Of a stretch of 64,000 nucleotides of DNA, positions 1,420 through 11,836 are shown piece by piece (within the stretch, counting starts at the first letter, position 1; every line of letters begins with the position of its first letter). A model generated the notes under the pieces. That model saw only the letters and a program-made list of their open reading frames with translations, had not been told where the DNA came from and did not search any database. The DNA is from Bacillota bacterium (lineage in GTDB: Bacteria; Bacillota_I; Bacilli_A; RF39; UBA660): NCBI GenBank assembly GCA_015059445.1, contig SVAK01000003.1:55058-119057 (forward strand). The letters run 5' to 3'. The position numbers and the translations under genes are program-made.

Positions 1420-2328
1420 ATGAAAGATATCAGAGTAGTATATATGGGGACACCGGATTTTTCTTTAGAACCATTAAAGATTTTAATGAAAAATACTAAC
1501 GTTGTTTTAGTTGTATCAAAACCTGATGCATTAGTGGGGAGAAAAAAGGTTTTAACATCATCTCCAGTAAAAAAATTAGCAGAAGAACACAATATTCCTA
1601 TTTTTACACCGGAAAGTATAAAAAAAGATTATCAACCAATAATTGACGCTAGGCCAGATTTAATTGTAACTTGTGCATATGGAAAAATAATTCCAAAAAT
1701 ATTAATTGAATATCCTAAATATGGATGTGTAAATATTCATGCTTCATTATTACCAAAGTATAGAGGATCTGCGCCGATTCAATGGGCTCTTATCAATGGT
1801 GAAAAAGAAACTGGTATAACGCTTATGTATATGGACGAATTTATGGATACTGGTGATATGATTGATGTTGTAAAATATACAATCAAAGATACTGATGATA
1901 TTGGTACGCTCCATAATGAATTAAGTATACTTGGCGGAAAACTTTTAGAAAAAAATTTAGATAATCTAATATCCGGAAATGTTAAAAGAATAAAACAAAA
2001 TGGCGAAGATGCAACTTATGCCCCAATGATTGAAAGAAAAATGGAAGAATTAGATTTTAATGATTTAGTTATAAATATAAATAATAAGATTAGAGCATTT
2101 AGTCCCTGGCCTTTAACTAGAACTAAAATAAAAAATGAAGAAATAAAAATAATTAAAGTCCATTATACTAACGAAAAAAGTGAAGTTAATAAACTTTATG
2201 TAACCAAAGATAGTTTGGGTATTGGTGCTATAGATGGAATAATTTATCTCGATGTAATTAAACCTATTGGTAAAAATGCCATGGAAATTAAGAATTATTT
2301 AAATGGTAAAAAGGAGTTATTTAAATGA
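1420..2328 (+). CDS. fmt: Methionyl-tRNA formyltransferase
   Basis: 302 aa. The N-terminus reads IVYMGTPDFS..., followed by HASLLPKYRGSAPIQWA (formyltransferase active-site motif) and the C-terminal Fmt domain. Confidence 0.9.
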   Translation: MKDIRVVYMGTPDFSLEPLKILMKNTNVVLVVSKPDALVGRKKVLTSSPVKKLAEEHNIPIFTPESIKKDYQPIIDARPDLIVTCAYGKIIPKILIEYPKYGCVNIHASLLPKYRGSAPIQWALINGEKETGITLMYMDEFMDTGDMIDVVKYTIKDTDDIGTLHNELSILGGKLLEKNLDNLISGNVKRIKQNGEDATYAPMIERKMEELDFNDLVININNKIRAFSPWPLTRTKIKNEEIKIIKVHYTNEKSEVNKLYVTKDSLGIGAIDGIIYLDVIKPIGKNAMEIKNYLNGKKELFK

Positions 2329-2930
2329 AAGAAAAAGATAATGATAAAATAACATCAATAGTTAAGTTAGGATTATGGCTTACCTTTATTGCAGTATTAA
2401 TAATCGTAGCAAACTTTGGCACTAATAAAAATAATACTAATGATAATGTATTGAATAATAGTAATGAACAAAAAGAATCTGTTTTAACTTATGAAGAAAA
2501 ATTAAATAAATTAACTGATAATTATAAATTTAATTATGAAATTAATGCTGATGGTCAAGTATATAATTATGTCGGAACTAGGTTATCGACAAGGGAAAGT
2601 GGTTATCGTTTAAATAATGATACGTATTTATATTATTATATAGAAGATGGAGCCATTCATGAGGTTAAAGATGAGACACTTTATAGATTAGAAACACTTT
2701 ACGAAAAATTAGATGTGGATAATTTAGATGTATCGAAGATAAAAAGTAGTATTAAAAACAAAGAATTTAATGAAGAAAACGGTAAATATAGTTATTTATT
2801 AGAAAATAATAAAAAAGTATCAGTATATACTGATTCAGAAAATATAACAAAAATAGAAATATATATTGGAAAAGACTATTACAAATTAGAATTTACTGAT
2901 ATTGGATTAGTTGAAAAAATTAAATATTAA
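2325..2930 (+). CDS. Hypothetical membrane-anchored protein with an N-terminal TM helix and an Asn/Tyr-rich ectodomain
   Basis: 201-aa ORF overlapping the fmt stop (ATGA). It has a hydrophobic segment LGLWLTFIAVLIIV. I recognise no family. Confidence 0.5.
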   Translation: MKEKDNDKITSIVKLGLWLTFIAVLIIVANFGTNKNNTNDNVLNNSNEQKESVLTYEEKLNKLTDNYKFNYEINADGQVYNYVGTRLSTRESGYRLNNDTYLYYYIEDGAIHEVKDETLYRLETLYEKLDVDNLDVSKIKSSIKNKEFNEENGKYSYLLENNKKVSVYTDSENITKIEIYIGKDYYKLEFTDIGLVEKIKY

Positions 2931-2940
2931 GGAGGTTTTT

Positions 2941-3666
2941 ATGGCCTGGAAATTATTATTAATAAATGCGCTTACATTAATTAGAGTAATTGGAACAATC
3001 ATTTTAATTCCAATTTATAAAAGCTATGGTGGTTTATATGTTAGTATTTTAGCTCTAATTTGTTATTTAACAGATAGCATTGATGGAATACTTGCAAGGC
3101 GATGGAAAGTATCAACTTTTTTTGGCGCTTTATTTGATGGGGCAGCAGACAAATTATTTACTATAATTAATTTTGTAGTTTTATATTTAATTACCCCGCA
3201 TGCATTAATACCAATAATTTTTGAAATTGCGATTATTGTAGTTTTATTTTTTAAATTCATAATGAAATTGAATGTTAAATCAAATATTATAGGTAAATTA
3301 AAAGTTTGGATTTTAGCAATGAGTGTAGTACTTACTTTTTTAGTGAGTGATATTAAAAGTATAGCATTTGTCCCTTTAAAGTTTAAAGAGTGGTTACTAA
3401 ATATTTCAAGCAGTACTTTATATTTTTGGTTATTATTACCTACCATATTAATAGAATTTTTGACTTTTAGTAGTTATGTTTTAGAATTATTTGCTCCAAA
3501 GAAAATAAAAATATTAAATACCCCTGATAAAGTGCTAAAAATTCCAGAATTAAAAGGTAAAAGTATATGGGGAAAATTTAAATGTATATGGCTTAATCCT
3601 GAATTTTATAATGAACATAAAAATGATACTAATTTAAAAGCTTTATGGAAACTATCAATTAGATAG
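2941..3666 (+). CDS. CDP-alcohol phosphatidyltransferase family protein
   Basis: It carries DSIDGILARRWKVSTFFGALFDGAADK, which is the D-G-x2-A-R...G-x3-D-x3-D motif, and is multi-TM. The ATG at 2941 is preceded by AAGGAGG; the ORF track's 2911 start is less likely. Confidence 0.75.
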   Translation: MAWKLLLINALTLIRVIGTIILIPIYKSYGGLYVSILALICYLTDSIDGILARRWKVSTFFGALFDGAADKLFTIINFVVLYLITPHALIPIIFEIAIIVVLFFKFIMKLNVKSNIIGKLKVWILAMSVVLTFLVSDIKSIAFVPLKFKEWLLNISSSTLYFWLLLPTILIEFLTFSSYVLELFAPKKIKILNTPDKVLKIPELKGKSIWGKFKCIWLNPEFYNEHKNDTNLKALWKLSIR

Positions 3667-3681
3667 TTTTTTTATTTAAAT

Positions 3682-3706
3682 AAAAAAATCCTGGAAGGAT
3701 TTATTT
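3682..3706. terminator. Bidirectional terminator between convergent genes
   Basis: Stem AAATCCT(3686-3692)/AGGATTT(3696-3702) with loop GGA, an A-run upstream and a T-run downstream. Confidence 0.6.
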
Positions 3707-4210
3707 GTTAAATTTAACAGTAATATACATTTCTTTGTCATATAATTCTTGAACGCTTCTAATAATTGAATTCGCTTTTTCATTATTGTGATCAGAAGAT
3801 GCAACAACAATACTAATTGTATTATCTTTAATTTTTACAAAAGCATTTAATTTAAATTTTTCATTAATTAATTCTTTAATTTTATTTTCATTAGCAGTAG
3901 AATCGTTTAATTTTTGCATGTTTTCATAAGCCGCATTTTTTTCTTCTATTGTACTTTCGCCATCTAATAGAATATCTTGATATTCCTCCATTAAAGTTTG
4001 TTTTTCTTCATCTTTTTCTACTTCCAAGGAAACTAGAATATCTGATTCAGTTATTTCAATTACTTCATTAGTATTATTATTTTCTTCAGTTTTTAATACT
4101 TGAGCAACCTCATCATCGATACTGACATAGTAAATTCCCAAAATTAATATTAAAGAAAATAGAGTTATAAACCACAAATTTTGTTTATTTATCATTAAAT
4201 CTCTCCTCAT
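3701..4210 (-). CDS. Hypothetical membrane-anchored acidic protein
   Basis: 169 aa. There is an N-terminal TM helix (WFITLFSLILILGIYYV), then a Glu-rich linker and a C-terminal beta-rich domain. It is divergent from the ABC exporter. Function unknown. Confidence 0.5.
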   Translation of the reverse strand: MRRDLMINKQNLWFITLFSLILILGIYYVSIDDEVAQVLKTEENNNTNEVIEITESDILVSLEVEKDEEKQTLMEEYQDILLDGESTIEEKNAAYENMQKLNDSTANENKIKELINEKFKLNAFVKIKDNTISIVVASSDHNNEKANSIIRSVQELYDKEMYITVKFNK

Positions 4211-4324
4211 AGCTATTAAATACTATGAATTTTATTTTAAAAAATAACTTTTTTGATAAAAAATAATAAATAAAAAAGGAAATGGGATTGTAAGTGACGA
4301 ATATTAATAGTGAAGGGAGGAAGA

Positions 4325-6379
4325 ATGAAAAATTTAAAGGCTATCATTCAAAGAGATTTGAAAGATTGTGGTGTATGTTGTATGCAGTGGATAATAAAAT
4401 ATTATGATGGTTATATCTCTTTAGAAAAATTAAGGGAAGATACTTTTACTGATATCAATGGTACAAGCGCTTATCATATTGTTAATGCTTTTAAAAAGTG
4501 GGGATTTGATTCTTCGGGGGTTTTGGAGCATGACATAAATAGCAGTAAGTTAAACTTTCCTTTAATTGCACATTTAGTTCTTGATAATGGTTTAGAGCAT
4601 TTTGTGGTAGTTAAATATGTTGTGAAAAATACTGTATATATTATGGATCCAGGTATTGGACATACTAAAACGAATATTACAAAATTCACTAAATTATTTA
4701 CAGGTCATATTATTGAAGCATTGCCTAGAGAAAAAATTATTAAAATGGATCATGAACTTTCTATAAATGAATTATTTTTAAATATAGTAAATAAGGAAAA
4801 GCTTCTCATTGCAAAAATAATTGTCACTAGTATTTTGTGGACTATTTTATTAATTGTTTGTAGTTATTATCTTAAAGTTGGTAGTATTTTAATAGAGCAA
4901 GATGCTGGAATATTAAAGTATACAGTTATTTCTTTTGGATTACTCACAGGACTCAAAGTATTTGTTTTATATGTAAGAGAATATTATGAAAATCATTTAA
5001 GTAATTTAGTTGATGTTTATATTTATCCAGAGTTTTTAAGACATTTGTTTTACCTTCCTTTAAAAGTAGTAAAAAGTAGAACAACTGGGGAAATAATTAC
5101 AAGAATTAGTGAACTTTCTAATATTAAGAGTTTGTTTTCTGATATTTTTGTATCATATTTTCTAGATTCTATAATGGTTATCATTTCTATAGTTATTTTA
5201 TTTATAATTAATAAAGACTTATTATTTATTCTACTTGCATGTTTATTACTTTATATAGTATGTGGAATAATTATAAGTAAAATTACGTATAAAAAAGTTT
5301 TGAAAAATATTTGCTATCAAACAGAATTTAATAGTATGATAGTTGAAAAAATTGATATGTTTGAGAGCATTAAAAATTTAAATGTTTGTAAAATTATATT
5401 AAGTAAAATAGAAAGTAGTTTATCTCAATATTTGCTTAATAATTATGAATTTAGTAGTTTTTTTAATATTGCTAATCTAGTTAAAGATTTTATTTTAGAA
5501 ATTTGTTTTTTCTTAATTAATTCATATGGATTTTGGTTAGTCTTGGATGGTAGTATAACGATGGTAAATTTATTTACTTTTAATATAATTCTTTCTTATT
5601 GTGTCGACCCGGTTAAAAATATTGTTAACTTATTACCAAAGTATAATTATATAAAAGCGTCGTTTTCTAAAATTACAGAATTTATTAATATTGAAGAGGA
5701 AAAAATTTCAGATGAAGAAAGTATTATGAAAGGAGATATCATATTTAAAGATGTTAGTTATTCTTACAATGATTACTTGTATGTCTTGGATAAAATTAAT
5801 TTTAAAATAAAAGAGGGCAGTCATGTTTTATTAAATGGTCCATCTGGGTGTGGTAAAAGTACAATATGTAAAATTATTTATGGAATAAATGAAGAATTCA
5901 GCGGTGATGTTTATGTCGGGAATAATAATTTTAAGGATATTAATTTAAGTACTATTAGAAGTAGTATTTTATATATTTCTCAAAATGAAGAATTATTTAC
6001 TGGTTCAATTAGGGAAAATATATTAATTGATAGAGAAATAAGCGAAGAAAAGTTTTTTGATATATGTAAAATATGTGAGATTGATGAGATTATTAGTAAA
6101 AAAGAAATGCGTTTTGATGCGCTGGTGGAGCCATCTTCTAAAAATATCTCAGGAGGTGAAAAACAAAGATTAATTTTAGCAAGAGGGTTGCTTAAGGATG
6201 CTAGTATATTAATCTTAGATGAAGCTTTATCTGAAGTTGATTATAAATTAGAAAGCAAAATAATTAAAAAAATTAAGGAATATTTTAAAGACAAAACAAT
6301 TATTTATATTTCTCATAAAAATCAAACGAAGAACTTTAATAATATTATTGAGTTGGGAGTTGATAATGAAAAGCTATAA
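4325..6379 (+). CDS. Bacteriocin-processing ABC exporter (N-terminal C39 peptidase + 6-TM domain + ABC ATPase)
   Basis: The C39 motifs are QRDLKDCG (catalytic Cys), LIAHLV...LEHFVVV (catalytic His) and IMDPGIG. Walker A is GPSGCGKST, the signature is ISGGEKQRLILAR, and Walker B is ILILDEA. The ATG at 4325 follows a GGGAGG RBS; the track's 4310 is a GTG alternative. Confidence 0.9.
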   Translation: MKNLKAIIQRDLKDCGVCCMQWIIKYYDGYISLEKLREDTFTDINGTSAYHIVNAFKKWGFDSSGVLEHDINSSKLNFPLIAHLVLDNGLEHFVVVKYVVKNTVYIMDPGIGHTKTNITKFTKLFTGHIIEALPREKIIKMDHELSINELFLNIVNKEKLLIAKIIVTSILWTILLIVCSYYLKVGSILIEQDAGILKYTVISFGLLTGLKVFVLYVREYYENHLSNLVDVYIYPEFLRHLFYLPLKVVKSRTTGEIITRISELSNIKSLFSDIFVSYFLDSIMVIISIVILFIINKDLLFILLACLLLYIVCGIIISKITYKKVLKNICYQTEFNSMIVEKIDMFESIKNLNVCKIILSKIESSLSQYLLNNYEFSSFFNIANLVKDFILEICFFLINSYGFWLVLDGSITMVNLFTFNIILSYCVDPVKNIVNLLPKYNYIKASFSKITEFINIEEEKISDEESIMKGDIIFKDVSYSYNDYLYVLDKINFKIKEGSHVLLNGPSGCGKSTICKIIYGINEEFSGDVYVGNNNFKDINLSTIRSSILYISQNEELFTGSIRENILIDREISEEKFFDICKICEIDEIISKKEMRFDALVEPSSKNISGGEKQRLILARGLLKDASILILDEALSEVDYKLESKIIKKIKEYFKDKTIIYISHKNQTKNFNNIIELGVDNEKL

Positions 6380-6779
6380 AATAAATTATCATAGATTACA
6401 AAATTTATTTCAAATAAAATATTATATTGTGGTAATAATTATAGTCTGTTTACTAACTTTCTTAATAATCATTTCTTGTTTTATAAATGTATATCAAATA
6501 AGCAGTTTTTACGGAATTTATAATGATAATGTATTGAAAATAAAAATAAATAATAAACTCTCTGATATTTTAAAAAATAATCAATATATTGAATATAATA
6601 ATCAAAAAACGACTTATAAGATTTTACAATTCGGGGAATATGAAATAATTAATAATGAAATATATCAAGAAGTAGATATGACTATAGATGGTAATTTTGT
6701 AAATAATGAAGTTGGATTGGTGAAATTTTATTATAACAAACAAAAAATCATAGAATATATTTTGGAATTATTTAAGTAG
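6367..6779 (+). CDS. Small single-TM accessory/immunity-like protein of the bacteriocin locus
   Basis: 137 aa counted from the ATG at 6367, which overlaps the exporter stop. It has one N-terminal TM helix (IVVIIIVCLLTFLIIISCF) and lies between the exporter and the peptide genes. Confidence 0.45.
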
Positions 6780-6792
6780 AGGAGGTAATAGA

Positions 6793-6939
6793 ATGAAAAG
6801 ATTAAATGATGAAGAAATGATAGAAGTGCAAGGAGGAGCATTTAGTTATAAAGCATTATTAGGACTGGTAGGTGCAGGCATTGTGTTCTTAATTGGAGTT
6901 ATAGATGGATTAATAAATCCTAGAAAGTGTAATAGTTAG
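6793..6939 (+). CDS. Double-glycine-leader bacteriocin-like prepeptide (48 aa)
   Basis: The GGAGG RBS is 7 nt upstream. The product is MKRLNDEEMIEVQGG|AFSYKALLGLVGAGIVFLIGVIDGLINPRKCNS. The leader has hydrophobics at -4, -7 and -12 and EE at -8/-9. The mature part is Gly-rich with GxxxG motifs. The gene is shorter than 60 aa, so it is absent from the ORF track. Confidence 0.75.
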   Translation: MKRLNDEEMIEVQGGAFSYKALLGLVGAGIVFLIGVIDGLINPRKCNS

Positions 6940-6947
6940 GAGGTAAT

Positions 6948-7109
6948 ATGTTAAATAATGAAGAACTTATAAAGGTAAGAGGTGGCGGTATTACAGCAAC
7001 ACTTCTTAATTCTTTATCGAGGCTTATGGAAACATTGTTAAATTTGGGTCAATTAGTTGGTTCATCTTTAAGACGCTCTTTTTCTAAAAAGACTTGTAAG
7101 CTACAGTAA
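6948..7109 (+). CDS. Second double-glycine-leader bacteriocin-like prepeptide (53 aa)
   Basis: The AGGAGG RBS is 6 nt upstream. The product is MLNNEELIKVRGG|GITATLLNSLSRLMETLLNLGQLVGSSLRRSFSKKTCKLQ. The leader is paralogous to the first peptide's. The mature part is a cationic, amphipathic, helix-like region with a single Cys. Confidence 0.7.
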   Translation: MLNNEELIKVRGGGITATLLNSLSRLMETLLNLGQLVGSSLRRSFSKKTCKLQ

Positions 7110-7113
7110 GATA

Positions 7114-7150
7114 TAAAAAAATATCAGTTTTTAACTGATATTTTTTTATT
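7114..7150. terminator. Rho-independent terminator closing the peptide operon
   Basis: An A-run, then stem ATATCAGTT(7121-7129)/AACTGATAT(7133-7141), then TTTTTTT. Confidence 0.7.
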
Positions 7151-7248
7151 TGCGGCCACATAACCAATCTATAGAGATTTTAAGTTTGGTATATATTTAA
7201 CAATGTAAATTAAGTTAACTTAAAATTTACAAACATTTGGCTTTTTTG

Positions 7249-7277
7249 TTGTCAAATTTTTAAGCAAGTGGTATAAT
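7249..7277 (+). promoter_or_regulatory. Promoter for rpsU-yqeY
   Basis: TTGTCA (7249-7254), a 17-nt spacer, then TATAAT (7272-7277). Confidence 0.5.
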
Positions 7278-7310
7278 ATGTTCAGTTAAAAGCGAAGGGA
7301 GGTCGAATTT

Positions 7311-7496
7311 ATGACAAAGGTTGTAGTACAAAATGGAAATATCGACGGTGCTTTAAAGAAATTTAAAGTAAAAGTTGCTAGAAGCGGTGTCCCTTCAGAA
7401 CTAAAGAAAAAAAAGTTCTACTCTAAACCAGGAGTTGAAAGAAGAATGAAGAAAGAAGAAGGCATTAAAAATTCTCACAAAAGAAATCACAATTAA
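7311..7496 (+). CDS. rpsU: 30S ribosomal protein S21
   Basis: 61-aa basic protein (MTKVVVQNGNIDGALKKFK...KKKFYSKPGVERRMKK) matching the S21 family. A GGGAGG RBS is present. Confidence 0.9.
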   Translation: MTKVVVQNGNIDGALKKFKVKVARSGVPSELKKKKFYSKPGVERRMKKEEGIKNSHKRNHN

Positions 7497-7509
7497 GGAG
7501 GATTAAAAA

Positions 7510-7947
7510 ATGTTTGAAAAAATTAATGAAGATTTAAAGAGCGCTTTAAAAAGTGGTGATAAATTCAAATTGTCAGTACTTAGAATGTTAAAGAGCGCTT
7601 TACAATTAGAAGAAAAAAATAAAAAAGAAGTTTTAACTGATAGTGATGTACTTGTAGTTTTGAAAAGACAAGTAAAACAAAGAAATGATTCAGCAAGAGA
7701 ATATGAAAGCTTAGGTAAGTTAGAAACAGTAGAAGAATTAAAAAAAGAAATTGAAATTATAAATACTTACTTACCAGAAGAAGCATCAATTGAACAAATA
7801 AATAAAACTATAGATGATGCATTTAATAAATTGAACCCTACAAACATGAAAGAAATGGGTACAGTAATGAAATATGTTACTGAGAATTTAACAAATGCTG
7901 ATATGACAAAAGTAAGTGCTATTGTTAAAGAAAGACTAAGTAAATAG
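7510..7947 (+). CDS. yqeY: GatB/YqeY domain protein
   Basis: 145 aa (EDLKSALKSGDKFKLSVLRMLKSAL...), in the conserved rpsU-yqeY arrangement. Confidence 0.8.
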   Translation: MFEKINEDLKSALKSGDKFKLSVLRMLKSALQLEEKNKKEVLTDSDVLVVLKRQVKQRNDSAREYESLGKLETVEELKKEIEIINTYLPEEASIEQINKTIDDAFNKLNPTNMKEMGTVMKYVTENLTNADMTKVSAIVKERLSK

Positions 7948-7957
7948 TCTTTTTTTA
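7933..7957 (+). terminator. Terminator after yqeY
   Basis: Stem AGACTA(7933-7938)/TAGTCT(7945-7950), followed by a T7 run. Confidence 0.55.
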
Positions 7958-7978
7958 TTTATTCTAAAATATAATTTA

Positions 7979-8236
7979 ATGATGAAAAATTTACATTTTA
8001 GAGATAGCTTTAAAAATTTTTTGTTTGATTTAGAAGATTTCATAACTATATATGAAAATCATTTGCATGTTTTTAACTATCAAAAATTAAACAATTTAAG
8101 TGAAACAGAAATAATTTTAAGTTTTAATAAAATGAAAGTAATAATAAGTGGAGTGAATTTAAAAATAAAACAAATGACTAAACAGGAACTTTTGATAAAT
8201 GGCAAAATTTTGAAAGTAGAGTTTTCTTATGTATAG
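7979..8236 (+). CDS. yqfC: YqfC-like sporulation protein
   Basis: 85 aa. The C-terminal pattern ISGVNLKIKQMTKQELLINGKI is typical of YqfC, and the gene precedes a yqfD homolog. Confidence 0.55.
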   Translation: MMKNLHFRDSFKNFLFDLEDFITIYENHLHVFNYQKLNNLSETEIILSFNKMKVIISGVNLKIKQMTKQELLINGKILKVEFSYV

Positions 8237-9395
8237 AGAAAAAATTATATGGATTAAAATTGAAACTAATAACTATTACAAAGTTTTAATTAAATTGAAT
8301 AATATTGGAGTTACTTTATATGATAATGAAAAAATTAAAGATTGCATTTTGATTAAGACAACTTATTCCGATTATAAAAGAATAAAAAGGTATTTAGTTA
8401 GTTATAAAATATCTATTTATAGTAGCTCTGGATTAGAGAAAACTTTAGGAATTTTAAAAAAATATGAAGTGTTTGTAGTAAGTATTATTATTGGAATAAT
8501 TATTTTATTTTTGGCTAATAATATGATTTTTAAAGTTGAAGTAAAAAGTTCTAATAAAGGCATTCAAGAATTGCTTGTTAGAGAATTAAACCAATATGGG
8601 TTAGGAAAAATGAAATTAAAAAAAAATCATAAGAAAGTTGAATTGATTGTAAATAAAATATTGGATGATAATAAAGATAATTTAGAATGGCTAGAAGTTA
8701 AATATGAAGGTTTAATTATGATAGTTAATGTTACAGAGAAAACAAAAACGGAAAATAGTGAAGAATATCCAAGATGTAATATAGTAGCTAGTACTGATGC
8801 CAAAATAACTAGTTTAAATATTTATCGGGGAGTCCCTTTAAAAGAAATTAACGATTATGTTTTAAAAGGTGAGGTTATATTAAGTGGTGATATAATACAT
8901 AATGAGGAAATAAAAAACACAGTTTGTGCTAGTGGAGAGATTTATGGAGAAGTTTGGTATAATGTAAAAGTTGAAATTCCTTTTAAAGAAAGTTATGTAA
9001 AATACACTGGAAAGAATAGATATAATTTAAGTATTGAATTGGATGATAATAAATATCAAATATTTAGAAGTAGAATCATGAAAATGAAAGAAGAGAAGAC
9101 AAATTTATATAAATTAAATGATTTTGAAATTAATTTGGTTAAAGAAAAAGAATATATTACTGAAACGAAAATTTTAAGTGAAGAAGAAGCTTATAATAAA
9201 GGCATAAACAAAGCTTTAGAAAAAGTTAATTTAACTTTAGAAGATAATGAAGAAATATTGCTTAAAAAAGTTTTGAAAAAAGATGTAAATGATAGTAAAA
9301 TATATTTAGAGATATTTATTGTAACAAAAGAGAATATTGGGGTGTTACAAGTAGTTCGAGAGGAAGTTGAAAATGGTGTCGAATCTAATACTTAA
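8229..9395 (+). CDS. yqfD: YqfD-like (stage IV sporulation) membrane protein
   Basis: 388 aa with a single TM helix near residue 80. The architecture is YqfD-like and the gene sits in the yqfC-yqfD-...-ybeY-dgkA-era-recO synteny. Confidence 0.55.
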   Translation: MYREKIIWIKIETNNYYKVLIKLNNIGVTLYDNEKIKDCILIKTTYSDYKRIKRYLVSYKISIYSSSGLEKTLGILKKYEVFVVSIIIGIIILFLANNMIFKVEVKSSNKGIQELLVRELNQYGLGKMKLKKNHKKVELIVNKILDDNKDNLEWLEVKYEGLIMIVNVTEKTKTENSEEYPRCNIVASTDAKITSLNIYRGVPLKEINDYVLKGEVILSGDIIHNEEIKNTVCASGEIYGEVWYNVKVEIPFKESYVKYTGKNRYNLSIELDDNKYQIFRSRIMKMKEEKTNLYKLNDFEINLVKEKEYITETKILSEEEAYNKGINKALEKVNLTLEDNEEILLKKVLKKDVNDSKIYLEIFIVTKENIGVLQVVREEVENGVESNT

Positions 9396-9987
9396 AGTTT
9401 TTAACAATATCTGGCCAATGTTAGTAGTATTTATAGTAGCTATTGCATTATTAAGATTCTTTTATTTACAAAATCATCGGGAAAAATTTTGTTTTTATAA
9501 AGAATTTTGGTATTTAATATCGATAGTATATATTTGGTTATTATTTGAGATACTGACGATGACGGAACTTAATGGTGCTTCTGGAATGAATTTAACGCCA
9601 TTTTCAGAAATACTTCGGTACGAATTTGGGACAAAAATGTTTAATTATAATGTTTTAGGTAATATGATTATCTTTATTCCATTTGGTTATTTAATTGGTA
9701 TGTATGTTAATCCTAAAAAAATATGGCCGGTAATTATTACAACATTAATTACAAGTGGCGTAGTAGAATTTGTCCAACTTAGAATTGGAAGATCTTTTGA
9801 TATTGATGATATTATTTTAAATGTAATTGGCGGTATTGTAGGTTATTTGATATTTATTGGTGCAAGTGCAATAAGTAAGCGATTACCAGACTTCTTAAAA
9901 AGTGATTTAGTAAAAAATATTATCTGCATTGTATTGATTTTATTATTTGGTATATATATATTTGGTTATTGGGGAGTTATATTTTAA
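9367..9987 (+). CDS. VanZ-family membrane protein
   Basis: 206 aa, multi-TM, with the C-terminal VanZ-like motif RIGRSFDIDDIILNVIGGIVG. Confidence 0.6.
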   Translation: MKMVSNLILKVFNNIWPMLVVFIVAIALLRFFYLQNHREKFCFYKEFWYLISIVYIWLLFEILTMTELNGASGMNLTPFSEILRYEFGTKMFNYNVLGNMIIFIPFGYLIGMYVNPKKIWPVIITTLITSGVVEFVQLRIGRSFDIDDIILNVIGGIVGYLIFIGASAISKRLPDFLKSDLVKNIICIVLILLFGIYIFGYWGVIF

Positions 9988-11698: not shown

Positions 11699-11742
11699 AA
11701 ATTTTAACACCTTCCCATTATATTAATAGGAAGGTGATTTTA

Positions 11743-11823
11743 ATGAATAAGAAGGAAGCTTGGGAAAAGTTTAAAAATAGTGGAAAAGTGGAAGATTATT
11801 TAAATTATAAAAAATGTAAATAG
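11743..11823 (+). CDS. yqzL: YqzL-like micro-protein (26 aa)
   Basis: The product is MNKKEAWEKFKNSGKVEDYLNYKKCK, which fits the W-x2-F-x3-G-x-[IV]-E-x-YL pattern of YqzL. It sits between era and recO as in Bacillus. An AGGTGA RBS is present. It is missing from the ORF track. Confidence 0.55.
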   Translation: MNKKEAWEKFKNSGKVEDYLNYKKCK

Positions 11824-11836
11824 AATTGGTGATGTA

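Follow-up and report, generated by a model that had tools for sequence, protein, structure and literature searches.

A peptidase-containing ABC exporter and a putative class-IIb-like peptide pair beside rpsU in uncultured Bacilli

Directly upstream of rpsU, in a 64,000-nucleotide stretch of DNA from a Bacillota bacterium (assembly GCA_015059445.1, contig SVAK01000003.1; hereafter the window), lie genes for an ATP-binding cassette (ABC) exporter with a peptidase domain, for a 137-aa protein with a single transmembrane (TM) helix, and for two small peptides, P1 and P2, with Gly-Gly (GG) leaders. This locus raises the question whether such a cluster is a recent accessory island or a resident part of the chromosome, and what its two peptides may do. 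Our favoured answer, which we hold to be probable though far from certain, is that 4276-7149 is a self-contained four-gene operon of vertical descent and class-IIb-like character, comprising a peptidase-containing ABC transporter (PCAT), a translationally coupled, membrane-anchored beta-barrel protein and the two GG-peptides.

The initial annotation of the window had described a bacteriocin export island inserted between a phosphatidyltransferase gene and rpsU. All five of its open reading frames (ORFs) are where it placed them, and gene callers give the identical five genes on some 22 public contigs that belong to this species; its phrase "four-gene module" disagreed with its own list of five. 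What survives of it is a compact export module in which a PCAT has two GG-peptides as its substrates and no canonical accessory, immunity or regulator gene is present. ORF list and domain search agree that 3701-7150 contains no two-component system, no protein with three to four TM helices and no full-length HlyD. The insertion and both of its proposals for immunity were not supported, for the reasons set out below.

Exporter and peptide substrates

Judged by architecture, and not by a curated hidden Markov model (HMM), the exporter is a divergent PCAT. Its most likely start is ATG 4325 (684 aa), which is preceded by GGGAGG, GTG 4310 being less likely. Pfam domains cover the peptidase (Peptidase_C39, PF03412, 4.9e-30), the membrane part (ABC_membrane, PF00664, 1.3e-26) and the nucleotide-binding part (ABC_tran, PF00005, 2.9e-26). 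Full-length matches were obtained to PCAT1 of Clostridium thermocellum (4RY2, E 2e-89) and ComA of Streptococcus (8HF4, E ~1e-86), which share the three-domain architecture and the catalytic Gln, Cys, His and Asp with the exporter at an identity of about 25-30%. The catalytic Gln-x5-Cys (IIQRDLKDCG; Q9 and C15), His (EHFVVV) and Asp (MDPG) align residue by residue with those of 4RY2, and Walker A (GPSGCGKST), signature (ISGGEKQR) and Walker B (ILILDEA) motifs can be read in the translation. The initial annotation's view that the peptidase Cys and His are intact and the exporter processing-competent is thus sound at the sequence level, and cognate GG-leader genes are adjacent. The NCBIfam model for peptide cleavage/export ABC transporters (TIGR01193) gives 373.9 bits, below its cut-off of 523.85, and the mycoplasma Mbov_0121 family (NF045998) matches over the full length with 303 bits, below its cut-off of 500. 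Unlike PCAT1 and ComA, the exporter is coupled to a gene for a putative mini-adaptor and to a two-peptide cargo family without a characterised member.

P1 and P2 were the only GG-leader peptides found in the 64 kb by a scan that combined a regular expression with a ribosome-binding site (RBS). Their genes are 8 nt apart, each with its own AGGAGG-type RBS, and the pair is kept in all lineages. The leaders, 15 residues in P1 (MKRLNDEEMIEVQGG) and 13 in P2 (MLNNEELIKVRGG), carry hydrophobic residues at -4, -7 and -12. Mature P1 (33 aa) is hydrophobic, with a grand average of hydropathy (GRAVY) of 1.0 and a charge of about +2, and contains GVIDG (a GxxxG motif), Pro-x-x-Cys and a C-terminal Cys. 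Mature P2 (40 aa) is amphipathic and cationic (charge about +5, isoelectric point 11), and contains GQLVG (again GxxxG), GSSxRR and a C-terminal Cys. Over 12 lineages, with identity down to about 28%, both peptides invariantly keep GG, one GxxxG (G35-x3-G39 in P1, G34-x3-G38 in P2) and one near-C-terminal Cys; in P1 a Pro three residues before this Cys is also invariant, and in P2 a Ser.

The HMM affinity of the pair to class IIb peptides is weak. Window P1 scores 20.9 bits (cut-off 37) with the lactococcin G-beta model NF038034 and 11.9 bits (cut-off 21.5) with TIGR03949, the lactobin A/cerein 7B class IIb family, and window P2 matches none of the class IIb peptide models TIGR03949, NF038034 and NF038035. 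Among the 12 P1 orthologues, 10 match the lactococcin G-beta/enterocin 1071B model (best 31.9 bits, below 37) and 10 match TIGR03949, the cut-off of which is passed by two (L022, 23.3 bits, and L050, 24.3 bits; L numbers denote the loci compared). Lactococcin G-alpha is matched by 2 of the 12 P2 orthologues at 7e-5. The 777 clusters that a profile search with P2 returned are devoid of Pfam domains, and a single source labels the family "bacteriocin-like protein"; PDB sequence searches with the P1 and P2 profiles gave nothing meaningful.

The lactococcin G locus has the order lagA-lagB-lagC-lagD-lagE. Like the loci for lactococcin G, enterocin 1071 and lactobin A/cerein 7B, the module has two adjacent small GG-leader genes for cationic mature peptides, one hydrophobic and one amphipathic, with a GxxxG in each, and these genes share an operon with an accessory gene and with a C39-ABC exporter dedicated to them. 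Unlike them, it is without an immunity gene, its accessory protein has 137 aa instead of the roughly 450 aa of the HlyD type, and, instead of varying between strains, it has been conserved vertically beside core genes throughout a deep clade. In a review of class IIb bacteriocins (PMC2850506), GxxxG motifs and two-peptide features define the class, and an immunity gene always accompanies the two peptide genes. As far as their sequences go, P1 and P2 match this definition except for the immunity gene. Because cysteine is never mentioned in that review (PMC2850506), the invariant C-terminal Cys in each partner is a distinguishing feature of the present pair.

We propose that the C39 domain would cleave both precursors after GG and that the ABC core would then export the 33-aa hydrophobic and the 40-aa cationic amphipathic peptide. 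Once outside, the two would most likely act as a class-IIb-like membrane-active pair, joined by GxxxG-mediated helix-helix contact, with a function like that of two-peptide bacteriocins. That the peptides serve as a weapon is, in our estimate, somewhat better than an even bet. Three observations tell against it. The window peptides stay below every curated bacteriocin HMM cut-off, there is no further ORF of at least 30 aa between 6779 and the terminator at 7113 that could be an immunity gene, and conservation of a core-like kind is unusual for a bacteriocin locus.

Two other genes deserve mention here. A VanZ-like (PF04892) membrane protein is encoded at 9373-9987, between yqfD and ybeY in the rpsU-era operon, and is present in every related locus; it was considered as a hidden immunity gene and rejected, since L106 has it but carries no peptide module. 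In a distant sub-clade, though not in that of the window, a third ORF of just 34-54 aa, hydrophobic and MSFR...G.FVGKLL-like, overlaps the P2 stop (L057 14534-14638, L059 13525-13662, L063 12802-12966, L069 12871-13008, L100 7156-7266; truncated in L095). It possibly encodes a small immunity or partner peptide.

The 137-aa protein as a candidate adaptor

The 137-aa protein is proposed to be a minimal adaptor of the membrane fusion protein (MFP, HlyD) type, on the basis of predicted fold, gene position and translational coupling to the exporter. Its gene overlaps the exporter stop by 14 nt and has the position of lcnD/comB-type accessory genes at one third of their size. An exhaustive profile search identified 153 cluster representatives, nearly all of 130-150 aa. 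The protein itself belongs to no Pfam family, a Pfam scan of 136 members gave scattered chance matches, and a PDB sequence search with the profile gave nothing meaningful.

AlphaFold predicted the same arrangement from 11 sequences (predicted local distance difference test, pLDDT, 84) and from 136 sequences (pLDDT 89.9): an N-terminal TM helix, a beta domain at 41-127 and a short C-terminal helix. The predicted model thereby has both features by which we would recognise an MFP accessory protein, namely an N-terminal anchor and an extracytoplasmic MFP-type beta-barrel. It has no alpha-helical hairpin and no lipoyl segment. Unlike established MFPs (MacA, BesA, ZneB, AcrA, EmrA, Spr0693, and the HlyD family including LcnD/ComB), the 137-aa protein would therefore consist of the barrel without alpha-hairpin, lipoyl and membrane-proximal domains.

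Several results speak against an adaptor role. A Foldseek search of the model against the PDB gave weak, mixed matches (HerA with a best E of 0.014 and PlzA, followed by MFPs, among them Spr0693 at a probability of 0.93), and the barrel fold is generic. HlyD Pfam families were matched by none of the 136 members (0/136). In L050, L053 and L075 the peptide pair is kept without the 137-aa gene, so that this gene is not required everywhere.

These three loci also bear on the suggestion of the initial annotation that the 137-aa protein provides immunity. According to the class IIb review, accessory proteins may contribute to immunity (PMC2850506), and no other immunity candidate is visible among the ORFs. 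The absence of the gene from loci that carry the peptides nevertheless argues against it as the immunity protein, and both fold and position are those of a truncated MFP adaptor.

The only recurrent HMM match of the 137-aa protein is to the mycoplasma MAG1140 family (NF045999), at 15.6-16.4 bits against a cut-off of 35. This model is matched by 35 of the 136 relatives (best E 5.4e-7), all of them below 35 bits, and we take the 137-aa protein from these scores to be a distant relative and not a member of the family. As noted for the exporter and Mbov_0121, the match to MAG1140 is end to end, and the two partner proteins, the 137-aa protein and that of the MAG1140 family, have about 126-137 aa and an N-terminal TM helix. 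The two mycoplasma genes may be adjacent, to go by their consecutive NCBIfam accessions. In literature searches, functional studies turned up neither for Mbov_0121/MAG1140 nor for C39 bacteriocin systems of mycoplasmas.

Regulation and role of the peptide pair

Upstream of the exporter, 20 nt before its start codon, we found AAAGGAAAT-N12-GACGAATAT. It fits the sigma-H consensus RNAGGAWWW / RNNGAATWW as quoted in PMC8510167, use of a sigma-H by this host being an assumption. The consensus is matched twice on both strands of the 64 kb, with 0.86 matches expected, and this count alone is not significant. L009, L103 and L105 have a strict match at the corresponding position, and L013 has one with a single mismatch; the -35 block of the motif is kept in L006, L011, L013, L022, L047, L050 and L053, far more distant loci included. 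No sigma-70 promoter with at least 9/12 matches was found on the + strand in 4200-4324. Together, these observations suggest that the operon may be under sigma-H-type control.

Export through a dedicated PCAT is the rule for ComC and for other GG peptides. P1 and P2 could likewise be conserved physiological or signalling peptides (cues of cell density, or of stationary phase and sporulation onset) or self-directed membrane effectors, served by a PCAT of their own. We regard this as a serious possibility, if on the unlikely side. Communication as well as competition is attributed to PCAT substrates in PMC7018657, and a signalling role would fit the missing immunity gene, the core-like conservation under purifying selection that is documented below, the conserved predicted sigma-H-type motif and a neighbourhood rich in sporulation genes (SpoIIIAH-like, GerM, YabP, YqfD). 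Against it, no histidine kinase, response regulator or Rgg/PlcR-type receptor is encoded nearby. The mature peptides, at 33-40 aa and with one TM-like hydrophobic helix, are also unlike typical pheromones, and their obligate pairing, GxxxG motifs and HMM affinity to lactococcin G and lactobin/cerein 7B point instead to a membrane-active pair of the class IIb type.

A bolder variant combines several of these elements. The operon would be an order-level, vertically inherited system that a sigma-H-type promoter switches on at stationary phase or sporulation onset, and P1 and P2, with a single Cys each and GxxxG packing, would form a disulfide-linked heterodimer. Its target would be the population of the producer itself, for which it would be a developmental cue or a toxin of the cannibalism kind and not a classical strain-variable bacteriocin. 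In this scheme, the 137-aa protein would stand for a class of minimal ABC adaptors that has not been described before and that mycoplasmas share. We consider the whole of this scheme decidedly speculative and improbable. If it were true, a self-directed heterodimer would account for the lack of an immunity gene and also for a conservation, next to sporulation genes, that resembles that of core genes.

Conservation beside rpsU and neighbouring genes

The class-IIb-like operon is found at the same chromosomal site in many relatives. At least 12 divergent lineages have it upstream of rpsU (L006, L009, L011, L013, L022, L047, L057/59/63/69, L095, L100 and L103-105), and they reach down to 62-68% identity of rpsU. 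Homologues of the 137-aa gene (58-70% identity) all stand in the order phosphatidyltransferase, SpoIIIAH-like gene on the minus strand, ABC exporter, 137 aa, 47-48 aa, 52-53 aa and rpsU-yqeY-yabP-yqfD. Scanning genome contigs with the phosphatidyltransferase gave three loci. The informative one, L006, which is the sole comparable GTDB representative (phosphatidyltransferase 53% identity), has the same gene order; L007 has unrelated synteny. Loci reached through the SpoIIIAH-like gene (L016, L022, L047) have the identical divergent arrangement. In a more distant group (L057, L059, L063, L065, L069, L071) the order is AH(+)-GerM, zero to three further genes, and then ABC, about 136-148 aa, P1, P2 and rpsU. 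P2 led to two abundant species with circular genomes of 1.81 Mb and 1.42 Mb, in which ABC-136/137 aa-46 aa-56 aa lies directly upstream of rpsU and the left-hand neighbours of the module differ from those in the window.

The initial annotation had held that an insertion should be visible as contiguity of the flanking genes in close relatives, and that a gene order conserved throughout the lineage would argue for core rather than accessory status. The latter is essentially what was found. In an unbiased sample drawn by YqfD (59-62% identity), three of the four relatives (L103-L105) carry the module, and the fourth (L106, YqfD 59% identical) has capsule genes upstream of rpsU instead. Among the lineages reached by way of other genes, every one whose locus includes rpsU carries the module.

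Module and flanks have diverged together. In four relatives, identity to the window was 72, 76, 70 and 53% for the exporter, 72, 74 and 53% for the phosphatidyltransferase (first, second and fourth relative) and 79, 76, 74 and 50% for YqfD, and synonymous divergence is equal inside the module and in the flanks (pS ~0.5). The exporter has a dN/dS ratio of 0.19-0.21, the 137-aa gene one of 0.17-0.42, and the values of the peptides span 0.09-0.61. There is no shift in GC, which amounts to 0.18-0.28 within the module and to 0.21-0.30 around it, and no flanking repeat pair, tRNA, integrase or transposase ORF was found at the module. By these comparisons of sequence, the module is ancestral and has mostly been retained beside rpsU under purifying selection, with occasional loss. 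The clade in which the operon would be ancestral is rich in species and consists of gut and rumen Bacilli that are uncultured, have small genomes of low GC and carry sporulation genes.

The divergent "acidic membrane protein" of 169 aa, which had been counted as a module member and possible immunity protein, belongs to the SpoIIIAH family. The minus-strand gene encodes 164 aa from ATG 4195, or 169 aa from 4210, and the protein matches PF12685 with E 3.5e-11 and 43.8 bits, above the gathering cut-off of 30.6; precomputed Pfam assignments of its orthologues agree. A scan of metagenome contigs with an alignment of these orthologues gave 80 loci. Homologues with 55-70% identity (L015, L017-L037) have no exporter within 8 kb, and since so many relatives carry the gene without an exporter, it is placed outside the module. 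It is not the last gene of a spoIIIAA-AH operon but stands alone in the window and in all relatives. We therefore regard it as a lineage-wide, stand-alone gene of the sporulation type, a conserved neighbour that is divergent from the exporter and unrelated to the module. In L019 (3766-9748) its neighbours are ftsA-ftsZ-spoIIGA-sigE, and genes resembling gerE and GerM come after it; a stand-alone copy followed by GerE-type helix-turn-helix and GerM (Germane) genes is likewise present in L095 (1421-3195). Sporulation genes near the SpoIIIAH-like gene in relatives imply that this small-genome uncultured lineage carries a sporulation toolkit.

That a bacteriocin island was recently acquired as an accessory element between the phosphatidyltransferase gene and rpsU, with immunity provided by the 137-aa or the 169-aa membrane protein, is very improbable in our judgement. 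The module does interrupt a block that is contiguous in Bacillus-type genomes, and L106 lacks it, but shared position and order in at least 12 lineages, co-divergence with the flanks and the lack of any compositional or structural sign of mobility show that it is not an inserted island, and neither proposed immunity protein fits its part, the 169-aa gene being widespread without the module. A decaying relic without current function is barely credible. The window and almost all relatives have unbroken ORFs with their catalytic and Walker motifs, each of the four genes has a dN/dS well below 1, and RBSs and the promoter-like block are conserved. For a relic speak the loss of the module in one lineage (L106) and the state of L097 (4282-6388), a contig of the species carrying P0178, where four ORFs (259, 136, 75 and 196 aa) make up the exporter and the 137-aa and P1 genes are not called, through strain-level decay or long-read frameshift errors.

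The boundaries of the locus are included in Table 1. A consensus terminator scan called neither of the two hairpins in the module region, because each contains fewer than three G-C pairs, and both were therefore judged by folding against shuffled sequences. The "strong terminators" described earlier on both sides were borne out on the right only. The right hairpin folds with -17 kcal/mol (z -6.5), and an equally good fold occurred in 0/200 shuffles; it is not kept in L006, L009 and L022. The left one, with a 7-bp stem, -8.5 kcal/mol and z -1.5, is weak and is a marker of the left boundary, outside the export module. On the right, the rpsU promoter (TTGTCA-17-TGgTATAAT, 11/12 match) is kept in all six aligned loci and marks the boundary.

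Table 1. Features at the exporter locus, in coordinates of the window.
Feature	Position	Strand	Remarks
Hairpin between the convergent CDP-alcohol phosphatidyltransferase and SpoIIIAH-like genes	3681-3697	.	AAATCCT-GGA-AGGATTT; flanks A/T
SpoIIIAH-family membrane protein	3701-4195	-	PF12685
Sigma-H-type promoter-like motif	4276-4305	+	Consensus match; predicted
Peptidase-containing ABC transporter (PCAT), 684 aa	4325-6379	+	C39 peptidase, six-helix ABC membrane and nucleotide-binding domains
137-aa single-TM protein	6366-6779	+	Putative miniature MFP adaptor (beta-barrel only)
GG-peptide 1 (P1), 48 aa	6793-6939	+	GG leader and RBS
GG-peptide 2 (P2), 53 aa	6948-7109	+	GG leader and RBS
Intrinsic terminator of the module	7113-7149	+	17-bp perfect inverted repeat, 3-nt loop, T-run
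rpsU sigma-70 promoter	7249-7277	+	TTGTCA-17-TATAAT, TG upstream

Other genes of the region were noted in passing. Different unannotated genes for 289-430 aa are present in L098 (7620-8912, minus strand), L100 (7604-8689), L104 (4906-6183) and L105 (5295-6164, minus strand), where they occupy the rpsU-yqeY or the yqeY-yabP junction, so that the otherwise conserved operon tolerates insertions there. A 26-aa ORF lies between era and recO in L011 (8736-8816), L013 (13338-13418) and L104 (10016-10096); the corresponding gap in the window is 139 nt (11699-11836). At 2325-2930, flanked by fmt and the gene for the CDP-alcohol phosphatidyltransferase, the window encodes a protein of 201 aa that has a TM helix at its N terminus and no Pfam or NCBIfam match, and the position of which is kept in relatives (205-213 aa; 29% identity in L032). 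In L007, where the phosphatidyltransferase is 46% identical, several large pilin-like proteins with N-terminal prepilin-type helices are encoded upstream of fmt (1973-8813), and the downstream synteny is wholly different (rlmN, PP2C phosphatase, PASTA kinase, rsgA).

As a rule, bacteriocin loci count as accessory and as variable between strains. Here, an operon of a PCAT and two peptides is instead kept at one chromosomal site under purifying selection throughout a large clade, whose members are uncultured Bacilli of gut and rumen with genomes of 1.4-1.8 Mb. It defines an uncharacterised family of GG-peptide pairs, with 777 clusters for P2 alone and an invariant Cys in each partner, and a family of beta-barrel proteins of about 135 aa, without Pfam match, which has at least 153 cluster representatives and is linked to unannotated mycoplasma genes. 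To go by the predicted models, no membrane-fusion adaptor smaller than these barrels seems so far to have been paired with an ABC exporter. The locus also offers a natural case of how class-IIb-like producers manage without a linked immunity gene. Known biology is not overturned by these findings, which provide concrete, testable targets in an uncultured lineage.

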